A stretch of 64,000 bases of DNA from an uncultured Gemmatimonadales bacterium (lineage in GTDB: Bacteria > Gemmatimonadota > Gemmatimonadetes > Gemmatimonadales > GWC2-71-9). Below the pieces are notes generated by a model that was not told the DNA's origin, ran no database searches, and worked only from the letters and a program-made list of their open reading frames with translations. The stretch covers positions 41,344-105,343 of the forward strand of contig CAWJMT010000001.1 in assembly GCA_963844035.1 (NCBI GenBank), written 5' to 3'. The translations under genes were made by a program, and so were the position numbers. Shown here piece by piece: positions 1 to 63,650 of this stretch; positions within the stretch are counted from its first letter, which is position 1; each line of letters opens with the position of its first letter.

Positions 1-1030
1 CTACGACCAGCAATTCGCTCAGCTGCTGACCGCGCTCGGCACCGTGAGCCCGGTGATCGAGCCCGCCGAGCTGGGGCGGGTGTTCGTGGGGATGGACGGG
101 CTGGAGGGACTGTACGGTCCGCCGGAAAAACAGGTGGAAGCGATACGAGTGCGGATTGCGGAATTCGGAATGCGGAATCGAAGTGCAGGCATCGATTCCG
201 CATTCGACATTCCGCACTCCGCACTCCGTGTAGGGCTGGGGAAAGGGAAAGTTCGTTTCCTGGGTCGCTGCCACTCGCGCGCGACCTGGACATGCCGTCA
301 TCGTCCGCCCGGGGGAAGAGGTAGACGTTTCTCGCCGCTCAACCCCTCGCCGTGCTGCCGCTCGATCCCGACACGCATCGCCGGCTGCGCCAGCTCGGTC
401 TGAGAACGCTCGCCGACCTGAAGGCGTTGCCTGAGGCGGCGGTCATCGCGCAGTTCGGCCGCGCCGGCCGCAGGCTGTGGCAGCTGGCGGCGGGAGTGCT
501 CGCCGAGCCGGTCGTGGGACGCGAGGTACCCGAGCCCATCGTCGCGGCCCTCACCTTCTTCTCTCCGGTCTCCGACCTGGAAATGCTGACGCAGTCGCTG
601 GTGCAGCTGATCGAGCGCGCACTCAAGCATCCGCGTCGCTCAGGGTGGCGCGTGCGGCAGGTGCGCGTGCGCGCCGCGCTCGAGCACGGGACATCGTGGA
701 TGATCGATGCCGTGCTCAAGGACCCGTCAGCGGATCCGAGTCGCATCCTCGCACCGCTCGATACCCGGCTGGACGTCGGCGCCGCCCACGAAAGCCGTCG
801 AGCGGCTCACGGTCGAGTTCTGCTCCTTCGCTCCGGGGACCACTGCGCTGCAGCTCTTCGCGCGCGATGCGAACGCGGCCGCGCGAGCCGGCAGGCAGCG
901 CGCACTGCGGTACGCCGTTCAGGAGATCAAGCTCCGGCTGCGGCGGTCACCGCTCTATCACATCATCGAGGTGCAGCCATGGTCGCGCATTCCCGAACGC
1001 CGCTACGCGTTGATCGACTACGAGCCCTGA
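1..1030 (+). CDS. imuB: ImuB-like Y-family polymerase homologue (5' truncated by window; apparent frameshifts near 250-350 and 775)
   Basis: Joined ORFs 44..403, 352.. and 707..1030: 'RLRQLGLRTLADLKALPEAAVIAQFG' thumb/HhH-like segment; C-terminus 'QPWSRIPERRYALIDYEP'; lies upstream of dnaE2. Confidence 0.75.
147..226. repeat. 7-nt-periodic inverted repeat inside imuB
   Basis: Arms 147-181 and 192-226 are complementary at 31/35 positions with a 10-nt loop; unit resembles TGCGGAA; ORF 44..403 reads through it. Confidence 0.85.
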
Positions 1031-59933: not shown

Positions 59934-61810
59934 TTACGCAACGGAACGGCGCCGGCGAAACGCCTCGACCACCAAGTTGTGAAGATCGCTCGGGGAAACG
60001 CCAGGAACGCGGGCCGCTTGCGCCAGCGTCGCGGGACGAACGCCGCTGAGTTTCTGTCGCGCCTCGGTCGCCAGACTCTGCAGCTCGAGGTAGGGCAGGT
60101 CGGCGGGCAGCTCGAACGACGCCATCTCGGCCAGGCGGCTGGCCGCCTCGCGCTCGCGCGCGAGGTAGCCCGCGTACTTGATCTCGATCTCCACGGCGGC
60201 GAGCGCGTCGTCGCTCGCGTCCACCGAGATGCCCGCGGCCTCGAGCAGCGCACGCAACGAAACTCCCGGACGCCGCGCGACCGCCGCTACGCGATCGGGC
60301 TCCAGCCAGGCTCGTTCCCGATGCCGCCAGCGCCGGCGCTGCCTGCGCGGGTGTGATCGTCGTTGCCTGCGCCGTCTCGAGCAGCCGCTCTTCAGCGCGC
60401 AGCCGCTGCTCCGCCAGCACGCAGCTCAGCATGCGGTGAGCAGCCCCAGCCGCTCCGCCAGCGGCACGAGCCGGCGCAGCGCGTTGTCCTGGCGCAGCAG
60501 CAAGCGAAACTCGGAGCGCGACGTGAACAGGCGATACGGCTCGTCGACGCCGCGCGTGACGAGGTCGTCCACGAGCACGCCGATGTAGGCGTCGTCCCGT
60601 CCCAGAATCACCGGCTCCTGCACCGCGCAGCCGTCGAACCACGTTGATCCCCGCCACCGCTCCCTGACCCGCCGCCTCTTCGTATCCCGTCGTGCCGTTG
60701 ATCTGACCCGCGAAGAACAGATGCTCGACCGCCTTGGTCTCGAGCCACGGCGTGAGCTGGGTCGGGGGATAGTAGTCGTACTCGATCGCGTAGCCCGGCG
60801 CGCGTCATCGCGGCCCGCTCGAGACCCGGCACCGCGTGCAGCAGCTCGAGCTGCACGGGGACGGGCAGGGACGTGGAGAGCCCGTTCACGTACAGCTCAT
60901 GCGTATCGAGCCCCTCCGGCTCGAGGAACATCTGATGGCGCTCCGCGGCGGGAAACTTGACGATCTTGTCTTCGATGGACGGGCAGTAGCGCGGGCCTCG
61001 CGCGCTGATCGCGCCGCCGTACATCGCCGACTCGTGGATGTGCCGCTGAATGATTTCCTTCACCGCGCGGCCCGGCCCACGTGATCCAACAGGGGAGCTG
61101 GCGCGGCAGCGCGTCCCGATCGAACGATGAGAATCGGTAGTCCCCGCCGTCTCCGTCCTGGCGCTCTACCTTCGACCAATCCACCGTTCGCCCATCGATG
61201 CGCGGCGGCGTGCCCGTCTTGAAGCGCGACACTGTAAGTCCAATCGCTTCAATATGTTGCGCAATTGCTACGGCCGGCTGATCTCCCGCCCGGCCGGCCG
61301 GAATCTCCGTGTCGGTACCGAGGTGAATGCGGCCACGCAGGAACGTGCCAGCCGTGATCACGACGGCGCGAGACGTAAGCCGCCGCCCATCGGCGAGCTC
61401 GACGCCGCCCAGCGTTGCTCCTTCCAGGATCAGACGCGTGACCATGCCCTGCGTCAACTCGAGACCCGGCGACGCTCTTCGAGCAGCGCGCGAACCGCGC
61501 GGCGGTACAGCGTGCGGTCGCATTGAGCGCGGGGTGCCCAGACCGCCGGGCCCTTGGAGCGGTTGAGCATCCGAAACTGGATCATGGCCCGATCAGTCGC
61601 GCGGCCCATGACGCCGCCGAGCGCGTCGACCTCACGCACAACCGTGCCCTTGGCAATGCCGCCGATCGCAGGATTGCAGCTCATCTGACCGATGGTATCG
61701 AGGTTCGACGTGAGGAGCAGAACGCGCGCACCCAGCCGCGCGGCCATGACGGCGGCCTCGGAGCCGGCGTGGCCGGCGCCGACAACGATTACTTCATAGT
61801 CAACAGGCAT
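59934..61810 (-). CDS. mnmG: tRNA uridine-5-carboxymethylaminomethyl synthesis enzyme (several frameshifts)
   Basis: '[12 protein letters not shown]', 'MSCNPAIGG', 'FKTGTPPR', '[11 protein letters not shown]', '[10 protein letters not shown]', '[11 protein letters not shown]', 'IKYAGY'. Confidence 0.95.
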
Positions 61811-61828
61811 GGGGAGGAAACTAGACAA

Positions 61829-61866
61829 CTAGGCGCATAGTCGCATAGACGCGCAGCGGACAACAG
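61829..61866. repeat. Left arm of the inverted repeat around the four-helix-bundle gene
   Basis: ctaggcgcatagtcgcatagacgcgcagcggacaacag; complementary to 62335-62372 at 32/38 positions. Confidence 0.85.
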
Positions 61867-61872
61867 GGGGAG

Positions 61873-62255
61873 TCAACGGGATTGGAGGGCTTCCCCGCGG
61901 TCCCGCTGATCTTCCGCATCAGACCGAACAGCGTCTTGCCCGTCTCGGTCGCGAGCGCTTCGAGTCGCCCGAACTCAGCGGGCCGCAAGTAGCCCGACGT
62001 CGCGCGCGATGGCCAAGGCGGATCTCAACCTCCGCCAATGAGCCCCACGCGATGTCGAGGTAGCGGCGATACTCCCGCGTCCCCTTCCTGGCGCGATCCT
62101 TCCGCGATGTTGAGGGGGATGCTGTACGCAGCTCGTCGTAGCTGGTCGGCGAGCACGCTCTGCTCGCAGTCAGGGAATGCCTGGGCGGCCTTGGAGCACT
62201 CGACCGCGAGTCGCTCCGCGTGCTGCCAGGCCTTGAGCGTGTGATGGATCGGCAT
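61873..62255 (-). CDS. Four helix bundle protein (23S rRNA IVP / bAvd-like; frameshifted; stop near 61873 or at 61821)
   Basis: 'LKAWQ..LA..FP..E...LADQLRRAAYSIPLNIAEG', 'EYRRYLDIAWGSLAEVE', 'IARDVGY', 'KTLFGLMR'. Confidence 0.88.
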
Positions 62256-62334
62256 GGTTCTGCACAATCGCTACGAGGAGCACTGGGGACCCAACCATTC
62301 GCCCGCACTGCGAACCATTCCTACTCACTCACAA

Positions 62335-62372
62335 CTGTTCACCGCTGTGCGTCTATGCGCCTGTGCGTCTAG
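62335..62372. repeat. Right arm of the inverted repeat around the four-helix-bundle gene
   Basis: ctgttcaccgctgtgcgtctatgcgcctgtgcgtctag; 8-nt periodic (ctgtgcgt/ctatgcgc/ctgtgcgt). Confidence 0.85.
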
Positions 62373-62386
62373 CTCTGTGCATTTCC

Positions 62387-63650
62387 TTACGCTTCTTTGA
62401 CCCACCGCACCAGTTCCCTCAGACTGGGCCGCTTTCCCGTCATCAGAATCCCCACGCGGTAGATCCGCGCGGCGACCCACGTGGCGCCGACGATCCCCAC
62501 CGCGAGCAGCACAAGCGATGCCGCGAGCTCCACCGCCGGGAGGTCGCCGGCTGCCCAGCGGACCGGCATGGCGATCGGCGACGTGAAGGAATCAGCGAGA
62601 GCGTCACGGCCAGGACCGACTCAGGATCGTTGAGCAGGGCGAACATGGAGAGGAACGCGACAACGAGCAGGTACACGAATCGGTTGCTGTGCTTGCTGAG
62701 CCTCTTGTTCGCTCGACGACATCGCTCCCACGGCGGCGAACATCGCGGAGTACAGGAAAAAGCCGCCGATGAAGTAGGCGAGGAAGATGAGAACGGTCGC
62801 GCCCGACACATGCGGAATCTGGAACAGGGGCTCCGGCGTATCGAACGCGCTCCACCGCCCTCCGAGCGCCGATCCCACGCCGAGCAGTACCTTCGCGGCA
62901 ATGCCCCACAGCAGGAATTGGAACAGCGACACCGCCCCGACGCCGAGGACCTTGCCGAGCAGCAATTGAAACGGGTGAATCGACGATACCAGTACCTCGA
63001 CGATCCGCGTCGTTTTTTCTTCGAGCACGGAGCTCTTGACGTTCACGCCGTACATCACAATCGCCATGTAGAGGATCACGGCCATGAAGTACGCGAGCGA
63101 GAACGATTGCGCCGCGCTTTCTCCCGTGGCATGCGAACCGGACACCTTGGTGGTGGTAGGGGTGATGCCTTGCCGCGCCCGCGTCAGCACGTCCGGATCG
63201 ACGCCCGCCCGCTCGAGCCGGGCCGCCGTGACGACGGTCGACAGCGTGGTCTCGAGCTCGCGGATATCGCGCAACGACGAGACATTGGACGCCCGGTACT
63301 CCGCGACCCCGCTCGTCACAACGTCCTCCCCCAGGATGAGCACGCCGTCGAGCCGCTTGGCGCCGACTTCGAGCATCAGCGAATCCAGCACGCCCTGGCG
63401 CCCACCCGTACTGGCCCCGGAGCGCGGGGCCGGCGTTCGGGCGGCGGTCACGCGCGCGCCGAAGTCCGCGTCGTGCCGTCCACCACCGCGATCTGCTTGG
63501 TTCCGCCGGACGAGGCGAGGATGGCCGGCAACAGAAACACCGCGGCGAAGAAAATCGGGCCGAGGAGCGTCGACAACCAGAACCACTTGCGCCGCACGCG
63601 CTCGAGAATTCCCGCCGGACCACGGCCCAGACTTTACGCACGCGCCGCAT
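62387..63650 (-). CDS. ABC-2 type transporter permease (NatB/YhaP-like; frameshifted)
   Basis: 'VWAVVRREF', 'SVLEEKTTRIVEVLVSS', 'LLLGKVLG', 'AARIYRVGILMTGKRP'. Confidence 0.88.

Follow-up and report, generated by a model that had tools for sequence, protein, structure and literature searches.

A PF05635 four-helix-bundle gene enclosed by octamer-repeat inverted arms between a permease gene and mnmG of a Gemmatimonadales bacterium: a candidate intervening-sequence-type cassette

The window, a stretch of 64,000 nucleotides from an uncultured Gemmatimonadales bacterium, carries a small gene enclosed by inverted repeats in the spacer between an ABC-2-type permease gene and mnmG, all three genes lying on the - strand. 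The 3' end of the permease gene (62387..62569, stop at 62387-62389) is the upstream neighbour and mnmG (59937..61810, ATG at 61810, in at least five frame pieces in the window contig) the downstream one. The cassette occupies 573 of the 576 bases between permease stop and mnmG start. Read in the sense of the gene, it opens with an upstream arm (62335..62387, - strand) made of an outer AGGAAA, four 8-base units and a non-periodic inner part, CAGCGGTGAACAG. A leader of 79 nt (62256..62334, - strand) runs from this arm to the ATG of MPIHHTLKAW, the start of a four-helix-bundle ORF of the PF05635/TIGR02436 family (61821..62255, - strand), which is spread over three frames in the window contig. The downstream arm (61815..61866, - strand) begins with the inner CTGTTGTCCGCTG, continues with 8-base units (TAG at 61822, 61830, 61838 and 61846 on the + strand) and closes with an outer TTTCCT, leaving 4 nt to the mnmG ATG. 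On the + strand, the outer pair reads AGGAAA (61815-61820) and TTTCCT (62382-62387), the latter sharing one base with the permease stop.

An inverted-repeat search of the window returned the paired part of the arms as 61829-61866 and 62335-62372, each 38 nt long and complementary at 32 of 38 positions (84%), with 468 nt between them. This is the longest inverted repeat of the 64 kb. The units are TAGRCGCA-like and keep an exact 8-base period, with TAG or CAG starts at 61822, 61830, 61838, 61846 and 61854 in the first arm, and CTG or CTA ends at 62347, 62355, 62363 and 62371 in the second. With four to five in-phase units per arm, in convergent and complementary arrays, the arms class with heptamer-type long simple-sequence repeats (units of 5-11 nt). 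The flanks reach a gapped-alignment score of 47, which the best of 1500 random 312-bp intervals from the same genome matched and none exceeded (99th percentile 33). When the sense RNA is folded, the arms close the whole cassette (-280.8 kcal/mol, z -4.6, none of 100 shuffles as good). The arms, their 32/38 complementarity, the outer AGGAAA/TTTCCT pair and the near-complete filling of the gap, all described in the original prediction, were thus reproduced. Base-by-base reading also gave the same count of mismatches as before: three of the six are G-T or T-G on the + strand, which means A-C on the - strand, the sense strand of the gene. The hint given by the G-T mismatches is not supported: these wobble-type mismatches fall on the antisense strand. 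Over 88 cassettes there is no excess of G:U-compatible mismatches on the sense strand (99 vs 108), a comparison of low power because tandem units pair in several registers.

Several familiar element types can be set aside. With no Rfam match across 61400-62800, and with the ABC-2 permease gene and mnmG as flanks, a location in a 23S or 16S rRNA helix is ruled out. As had been noted, the sequence contains no visible transposase, and neither another ORF family nor a target duplication or direct repeat at the cassette ends; an IS or MITE is ruled out by the lack of a transposase gene and of a target-site duplication. A scan of the leader, restricted on the promoter side to sigma-70 consensus sites, found no sigma-70-like promoter or terminator. 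When the leaders of seven orthologues are aligned, conservation is patchy and reveals neither a clear promoter or Shine-Dalgarno sequence nor a core terminus.

The protein is a clear member of its family. A whole-genome profile search located the gene at 56.9 bits. In the window, the first frame piece reaches 58.8 bits with PF05635 (cut-off 33.8), and the intact allele on contig C30 reaches 100.2 bits with TIGR02436 (cut-off 24). PF05635 and TIGR02436 are the only matches, and no nuclease or recombinase fold was found. The motif Q..RR....S...NIAEG is conserved, with invariant Q, R, S, N, E and G in the broad family alignment A1. The nearest solved structure is XCC0516 (2GSC, deposited with five chains; E 4e-18), and an S23p family protein has been described as a pentamer (PMC4990558). 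XCC0516 comes from the same Xanthomonas species as the convergent GGGAATC arrays discussed below.

Relative to a 94%-identical second copy on bin contig C9, single extra bases at 61992, 62024 and 62095 split the ORF over three frames. In the window contig, the last frame continues into the 3' arm as far as a TAG stop (61821-61823), whereas the C9 copy is read in one frame up to a TGA corresponding to 61873-61875. In short contigs of relatives from four metagenomic DNA runs, neither 61996 nor 62095 has a counterpart, and the additional base of C9 is present at 61867 and 61886. The three frameshifts in the window contig look like assembly errors. Across the orthologue series, dN/dS is 0.03-0.11 with saturated dS, and the protein is under strong purifying selection.

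This series extends over at least five genera. The cassette sits at the permease-mnmG junction in four other genomes (G081, G071, G050 and G002) and in three versions in the source bin. It is old and vertically inherited at this junction, and gene and arms form one conserved unit. Cognate 5' and 3' arms pair with scores of 54-77, compared with 15-37 for non-cognate combinations; the two arms of each genome co-evolve and stay complementary. Although the protein is retained, the repeat units of the two arms change in step. In one close pair, G071 and G002, the proteins differ little (pN 0.09), yet the arm types differ. In the intact orthologue C30, the arms have decayed and score 17, a background level; the gene can thus survive the loss of a good stem. 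Genomes without the gene also carry gene-free and single-armed arrays at the junction (L049, L051, L048 and L062). The original prediction had considered the cassette possibly mobile and had proposed searching relatives for an empty junction. The one informative 'empty' relative retains an arm remnant, which points to deletion. Recent mobility at this junction is not supported, given the synteny in five genera, the saturated dS and the strong purifying selection.

The layout is not confined to this locus. With an inverted-repeat score of at least 34, above the 99th percentile of the random controls, arms flank 88 of 110 sampled relatives from Gemmatimonadales and many other phyla. These comprise all five independent loci in the source genome, 25 of 29 in a set of 29 Gemmatimonadales genomes, and 58 of 76 from many phyla, the last sample being biased towards one subfamily because it was searched with the narrower alignment A2 instead of A1. 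Periodic arms are present in 74 of the 88 cassettes, mostly with period 7 (n=64), more rarely with period 8 (n=8) or 9 (n=2), and the inner length is narrow (median 442 nt, 5-95% range 375-601). Both expectations raised earlier, that paralogues would have periodic inverted arms and that arm type would follow protein relatedness, were borne out. Protein identity correlates negatively with unit distance (rho -0.30; none of 500 permutations as low), and among pairs at 65-80% protein identity, 73% share a unit, cross-phylum pairs included. This argues for the gene and its arms probably travelling together. The heptamer units share the consensus GGNGTCR (5.17 bits vs 3.0-3.2 in controls). Stop codons are in excess in the units (45 of 72 vs 29.2 expected) because of the GTCA consensus; they were rejected as a general rule, as 23 of 50 distinct units have none. 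We found no literature that describes a general association of PF05635 genes with octamer or heptamer arms, and only the Coxiella 23S rRNA intervening sequence (IVS) paper notes heptamer repeats. New here are the units of eight bases, a series of orthologues whose arms co-evolve, and gene-free hairpins homologous to cassette arms.

These gene-free hairpins occur elsewhere in the genome, as the original prediction had suggested, and at least one is orthologous across genera. The source genome holds about 75-80 gene-free hairpins or mirror arrays of the same design, with unit families that include those of all five cassettes. Hairpins on contigs C17, C37 and C12 share the arm of the window cassette, including the non-periodic inner CAGCGGTGAACAG. 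The hairpin at C12:38062 is orthologous in four genera and, judged by this conservation, is not a recent insertion; the C37 locus has little conserved flank in relatives. Near-identical dispersed copies were not seen among the gene-free hairpins. Their polarity is marked, with the purine/G-rich array first in 65 of 80, and the median is 4.1 units per arm. A palindrome within dnaE2, as reported earlier, is not supported: the one periodic hairpin found near this gene (147..226, no strand assigned; 35-nt arms 89% complementary, 10-nt loop) lies upstream of the dnaE2 ORFs and is built from a different unit family, AATGCGG heptamers.

Array type and cassette arm type agree in all four genomes of clear type (G000 30 vs 17, G002 49 vs 16, G081 16 vs 92, G071 12 vs 20). 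A unit type concerted over the whole genome holds for G000, G002 and G081; it fails for G071 and G063, where the unit type of the C12:38062 hairpin differs from that of their own mnmG-junction arms. In a small sample with related members, long hairpins are rarer in genomes without a PF05635 match (G044, 0 in 400 kb; G011, 0 in 159 kb; G058, 1 in 272 kb; G037, 5 in 239 kb) than in those with one (G049, 20 in 393 kb; G000-C4, 9 in 400 kb; G081, 6 in 400 kb with an N run dropped). Mirror-array pairs detected by TRF numbered 0 in a PF05635-negative and 1 in a PF05635-rich genome; the arms of the G049 hairpins are non-periodic and are missed by TRF.

Our preferred reading, held tentatively and at a little under an even chance, is an IVS-type cassette: a PF05635 gene and its octamer arms, inherited as a unit and transcribed with the operon, whose stem is predicted to be cut by RNase III. 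The gene and its two complementary arms would pass on together between the permease gene and mnmG. The cassette is likely transcribed with this operon, as suggested by the strand shared with both neighbours, the lack of a promoter-like site and the completely filled spacer. In the wider sample, the upstream gene is co-directional with the cassette gene in 40 cases vs 12, by a crude frame heuristic that left 36 uncalled; against co-transcription, 7 of the 35 cassettes with both neighbours called are antisense to both. In the transcript, the arms would fold as a stem of ~40-50 bp, and cutting by RNase III, which we infer from the IVSs of Coxiella, Leptospira and Salmonella, would free the RNA of the small gene, as in 23S rRNA. 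The protein, as a pentameric ring, would act on nucleic acid, probably on its own repeat arms. Against this reading, RNase III processing by itself does not account for the polarity and the narrow size of the gene-free hairpins, and the lack of a G:U excess and the decayed arms of C30 also count against it.

The gene-free hairpins could also reflect a system acting on DNA, similar to REPINs and their RAYT partners, a possibility that we regard as somewhat unlikely. In such a system, the four-helix-bundle protein, encoded by a single-copy gene passed on vertically, would recognise the arms of its own cassette in hairpin or single-stranded DNA form and would keep up or spread the gene-free hairpins. 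This would fit the many arrays with unit families covering all five cassettes, the cassette arm that some of them share down to its non-periodic inner part, the match of array and arm type in the clear-type genomes, the scarcity of long hairpins in the sampled PF05635-negative DNA and the common heptamer consensus. Vertical inheritance under purifying selection likewise matches the behaviour described for REPIN-RAYT systems (10.1101/2022.05.22.493013; PMC3337134). However, no nuclease or recombinase fold is known for the protein, and the one traced hairpin is orthologous in four genera, with near-identical dispersed copies not seen. The discordant hairpins of G071 and G063 and the differing arms of G071 and G002 despite their close proteins also speak against it, as do the small sample of related genomes and the five hairpins of G037, which lacks a PF05635 match. 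Alternatively, the arms may be host palindromes, perhaps terminators, that were made by slippage before the gene arrived and into whose loops it prefers to insert. We consider this quite improbable: gene-free and single-armed arrays are indeed common, even at permease-mnmG junctions without the gene, and heptamer repeats are described as widespread in bacteria independently of any gene (PMC4679880, PMC4692102), but related proteins carry the same unit across phyla and loci, which would be unexpected if the core inserted into arbitrary hairpins. Conserved core termini inside the arms were not seen in the alignment of seven leaders, and the arm-to-gene spacing is narrow.

That the inverted repeat arose by chance or through misassembly is a negligible prospect, despite the many indel errors in the window contig. 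The armed cassette recurs in two other bin contigs, in four other genera and, in part, in contigs of unrelated metagenome runs, its score equals the maximum of the controls, and random controls, orthologues and cross-phylum survey together refute this reading. A broader conjecture, which we think unlikely in full, would see PF05635 proteins and intergenic short-tandem-repeat hairpins as one ancient, vertically persisting replicator resembling RAYTs and REPINs. In it, a pentameric ring would replace the transposase, read ~4-5 tandem units of 7 or 8 nt, homogenise the arms and seed gene-free copies, and the 23S rRNA IVSs would be members that landed in rRNA. If true, this would give one answer to two puzzles, namely the role of the S23p/Avd-like family outside diversity-generating retroelements (DGRs) and the abundance of convergent heptamer-type repeats. 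The orthologue series and the gene-free hairpins with homologous arms make the question testable. It also has practical relevance, since cassettes of this kind interrupt operons, may resemble CRISPR-like repeats next to genes and cause breaks in assemblies.

Compared with known systems, the protein has the homologous four-helix-bundle fold of the DGR accessory protein Avd, and PF05635 is reported as the most common Pfam family beside DGR reverse transcriptases (PMC10053308). A DGR setting like that of Avd was rejected for this spacer: filled by the cassette and only 576 nt long, it could hold neither a reverse transcriptase nor a pair of template and variable repeats, and the neighbours are the permease gene and mnmG. 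The arms resemble the Xanthomonas heptamer repeats, which are tandem, G-rich 7-nt units, about four per array, intergenic and transcribed (PMC4692102). Convergent GGGAATC pairs number 70-75 per Xanthomonas genome (PMC4692102), and heptamer long simple-sequence repeats go back to Mrazek et al. 2007, as described in PMC4679880. These papers name no protein partner, whereas here the arrays enclose a PF05635 gene.

With REPIN-RAYT systems the cassette shares a single-copy gene flanked by inverted repeat copies, gene-free hairpin-forming doublets across the genome, an own repeat family per gene, and vertical inheritance with long persistence (PMC3337134, 10.1101/2022.05.22.493013). It differs in its protein, a four-helix bundle of 120 aa that matches only PF05635 and TIGR02436 and has no HUH/Y1 transposase motifs, in its tandem 7/8-mers instead of REP palindromes, and in that no transposition events were seen.

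The closest likeness in anatomy is to the ORF-bearing IVSs of 23S rRNA. In Coxiella burnetii, a 428-nt S23p IVS in helix 45 has a 28-bp stem that is cut by RNase III, and the cut at the 5' end falls where heptamers are repeated in tandem, in variable number (PMC4990558); an ORF-bearing IVS is also known from Leptospira (Ralph and McClelland 1993, as cited in PMC4990558). The family is the same (S23p is PF05635), and in both cases the ORF is enclosed by a stem of terminal inverted repeats and reads in the direction of the host transcript. The size is 428-444 nt there and 573 nt here (468 nt between the arms), and the units are 7 and 8 nt, respectively. For the Coxiella ORF, decay and a probable lack of translation are described (PMC4990558), whereas strong purifying selection acts on the protein of the present cassette, for which cleavage is a prediction. 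The earlier reading of a stem-bounded cassette thus stands: it has the anatomy of an ORF-bearing 23S rRNA IVS, placed in the spacer of a protein-coding operon instead of an rRNA helix.

The PF05635/TIGR02436 gene in the spacer between mnmG and the ABC-2 permease gene is enclosed by two inverted arms of 38 nt, at 61829-61866 and 62335-62372, which are complementary at 32 of 38 positions. The sequence and a repeat finder returned the same pair at the originally predicted coordinates, and the arms are the longest inverted repeat of the window. A base-by-base comparison of the arm strings also confirmed that three of the six mismatches are G-T or T-G on the + strand; on the - strand, which is that of the gene, these become A-C. 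The arm period is exactly 8, with TAG/CAG starts at 61822, 61830, 61838, 61846, and 61854, and mirror units of the opposite arm ending at 62347, 62355, 62363, and 62371. The outer AGGAAA/TTTCCT pair exists as well, and with it the element spans 61815 to 62387. Of the 576 bases that separate the mnmG ATG (61810) from the permease stop (62387-62389), it occupies 573. In gapped flank-against-flank alignment the cassette has an arm score of 47, while 1500 random 312-bp intervals from the same genome gave a 95th percentile of 29, a 99th percentile of 33 and a maximum of 47. The TAG of the octamer gives stops in all three frames of the upstream arm, on either strand.

The enclosed ORF encodes a four-helix-bundle protein of PF05635 (23S_rRNA_IVP)/TIGR02436, with XCC0516 of Xanthomonas campestris (2GSC) as nearest solved relative (E 4e-18). 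It is spread over three frames, with extra bases at 61992, 62024, and 62095 relative to a 94%-identical copy on contig C9 of the same bin, which lies in one frame. Such a pattern could possibly mark a real, recent pseudogene. However, the bases at 61996 and 62095 are absent from relatives' contigs, which stem from two other metagenome runs, and the window mnmG (59937-61810) aligns in at least five frame pieces to its orthologue on contig C30, an intact 621-aa ORF. The contig therefore contains many single-base indel errors, and because of both observations we read the frameshifts as assembly indels. Among the housekeeping genes of the window contig, mnmG, the ABC-2 permease gene, and a parA-like gene are each split over several frames.

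The bin (G000; 39 contigs, 3.47 Mb, 84% complete) has PF05635 matches in seven places, three of which (C1, the window contig, C9, and C30) are versions of one permease-cassette-mnmG locus. Because the C30 version is well diverged from that on C9 (pS 0.63), the bin is a mixture of related organisms. As predicted for paralogues, all five independent loci have periodic inverted arms built of short tandem units, each locus with its own: TAGRCGCA, AGGCGGGA, AGGCGGTT, and TAAGACGM, all 8-mers, and the 7-mer CAGGTGT. Outside the window, at G000:C4:390163-390718, two TAGRCGCA arrays in direct, not inverted, arrangement flank an apparent tRNA gene with a long variable arm.

Of 24 further genomes of the family in which mnmG was matched, four (G081, G071, G050, and G002) have the permease-cassette-mnmG arrangement. 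The permease gene adjoins mnmG without a PF05635 gene in 13, with junctions of 84-333 nt, an insert of 643 nt that lacks both a PF05635 match and obvious arms occupies the junction of one (G080, locus L044), and in six mnmG has another upstream neighbour. The junction proteins are 68-81% identical to the C30 allele vs about 45% to other paralogues, which identifies them as orthologues. A dN/dS of 0.03-0.11 among pairs with estimable dS, their synonymous sites being saturated, indicates strong purifying selection. The closest mnmG lacking the gene, that of G063, retains an array resembling the 5′ arm of G050 plus a 3′-side fragment, and looks like a deletion remnant. Taken together, orthology, purifying selection, and this remnant show the cassette to be an old vertical resident of the junction that is sometimes lost. 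The original prediction of a possibly mobile cassette thus finds no sign of recent movement here; gene-free junctions do occur in relatives, but the closest one appears to result from loss. The gene-free junctions of other genera (L049, L051, L048, and L062) contain single-armed arrays of unrelated 7/8-mers (GCTTCCC x4, CCTTCTC, AGCTCGC x4, and GGGAGAAC x6).

Under this conserved protein, the 5′ arms of the orthologues are near background in direct similarity (17-43). Cognate 5′ and 3′ arms pair with scores of 54 in G081, 56 in G071, 57 in G050, 77 in G002, 61 in C9, and 47 in the window, whereas pairing with the 3′ arms of other genomes reaches only 15-37. C30 departs from this pattern, with a score of 17 for its own arms although its ORF is intact. 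With this exception, the alignments show the two arms of each cassette to co-evolve. The proposed co-variation of arm and protein was also recovered: across 63 heptamer cassettes, protein identity correlates with unit distance (rho -0.30, 0/500 permutations as low), and units are alike within one change in 73% of pairs at 65-80% protein identity vs 3-9% below 55%. Unit-sharing pairs even cross phyla (Acidimicrobiia/Terriglobia, 75%; Pseudomonadota MAG/Phycisphaerae, 76%). That closely related proteins have like units, even between phyla, speaks against a gene core inserting into arbitrary hairpins, and argues for gene and arms being inherited and transferred as one unit. The proteins of G071 and G002 are almost alike (pN 0.09), but their arm types differ. 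The correlation is no proof that the protein reads its unit, as relatedness alone can yield it.

Similar cassettes are widespread. Arm scores of at least 34, which exceed the 99th percentile of the random controls, were reached at 25 of 29 loci from other genomes of the order (one per genome, picked by best HMM score). The same held for 58 of 76 loci from named public genomes, these being the loci with enough flank among 80 collected via a subfamily alignment, a sample which leans towards the query subfamily. The latter include members of Acidobacteriota, Planctomycetota, Cyanobacteriota, Chloroflexota, Verrucomicrobiota, Bacteroidota, Nitrospirota, Alpha-, Beta- and Gammaproteobacteria, Patescibacteria, and WOR-3. 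With all samples pooled, 88 of 110 loci pass; arms are periodic in 74 of these 88 cassettes (period 7 in 64, 8 in eight, and 9 in two), with medians of 37 nt for the arm and 442 nt for the inter-arm distance (5-95% range 375-601). Heptamer units from many phyla share the consensus GGNGTCR (5.17 bits; 3.0-3.2 ± 0.2-0.3 bits in two shuffling controls), whose complement places a TGA in every frame of the gene's downstream arm. Long arms without periodicity are also found in cassettes from the genome family of G049 (L024, L036, and L037).

Arms occur without the gene too. A TRF-based scan of G000 found 80 inverted pairs of 7/8-mer arrays, with a median of 4.1 units per arm (IQR 3.8-4.4), the G-rich array first in 65, the C-rich in nine, and six equal. 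The loop does not exceed 120 nt in 74 pairs; in the three cassettes caught by the scan it measures 401-520 nt. Their unit families cover all five G000 cassettes and several families without a cassette, the bin being incomplete. The hairpins at C17:1432, C37:167301, and C12:38062 have the arm of the window cassette, including the non-periodic inner CAGCGGTGAACAG / CTGTTCACC, and a short apical hairpin where the cassette has its gene; they are homologous to the cassette arms, so gene-free relatives of the cassette do exist. A periodic palindrome originally placed in dnaE2 is probably the AATGCGG-heptamer one at 147-226 (35-nt arms, 89% complementary, 10-nt loop), which is gene-free but situated immediately upstream of dnaE2, itself frame-broken.

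Set between conserved flanks, the C12:38062-38195 hairpin has orthologues in G063, G081, and G071 and a reduced one in G068 (L275-L280); it has persisted at this site in four genera. The outer ends GGCTAGA...TCTAGATT are kept, while the unit, which has changed jointly in the two arms, is AGACGCA in G000 and G071, AGAGGCA in G063, and AGACGGR in G081. Gene-free hairpins are therefore long-lived too, with all units turning over in concert, and some homogenising process must act on these arrays. Double units of the AGACGCR and AGACGGS types number 30 and 17 in G000, 49 and 16 in G002, 16 and 92 in G081, 12 and 20 in G071, and 7 and 7 in G050, compared with 0-12 in reversed-pattern controls. The dominant type matches that of the junction cassette arms in 4/4 genomes with a clear type, and the type of the traced C12 hairpin disagrees with the cassette in G071 and G063. 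Long hairpins (score 40 or more) were rarer in four PF05635-negative genomes (G044, none in 400 kb; G011, none in 159 kb; G058, one in 272 kb; G037, five in 239 kb) than in three positive ones (G049, 20 in 393 kb; G000-C4, nine in 400 kb; G081, six in 400 kb, one N-run hit dropped), a hint from a small sample of related genomes. The 20 of G049 (contigs C5, C3, and C15; L165-L184) have mostly non-periodic arms of 26-112 nt and form several families, e.g. eight copies with GTCTAGAGTCTG...AAAACC..GTTCA.

How the cassette acts may be read in two ways. Its gene shares the strand of both neighbours, the element fills the spacer, and scans of the locus gave no sigma-70-like promoter, no terminator and no Rfam match. 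In the folded sense RNA the arms close the cassette (z -4.6), and a crude heuristic, which left 36 cassettes uncalled, placed the upstream gene in the same direction as the cassette in 40 cases vs 12. According to a Coxiella study, RNase III cuts within a stem of 28 bp and so excises a homologous 428-nt element from pre-23S rRNA, with variable-number tandem heptamers at the cut (PMC4990558). For these reasons we consider, with moderate confidence, RNase III processing to be the most likely mode: the operon transcript would carry the cassette and RNase III would process it. Three points speak against it and fit better with a partnership in which the PF05635 protein is tied to its repeats: the null wobble test, the intact C30 gene despite decayed arms, and the gene-free hairpins with their polarity and narrow size range.

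Among the literature searched, as far as its accessible text goes, the PF05635 family and heptamer repeats appear together only in that Coxiella study of 23S rRNA intervening sequences (PMC4990558). PF05635 genes wedged into cas operons were described with no mention of repeats (PMC3936711), and convergent pairs of GGGAATC, 70-75 in each Xanthomonas genome, were reported, the available portion of that paper naming no gene (PMC4692102). To these, the window adds octamer units, a series of orthologues whose arms co-evolve while the protein stays conserved, and gene-free hairpins whose homology to cassette arms is demonstrated and which have orthologues of their own in other genera.
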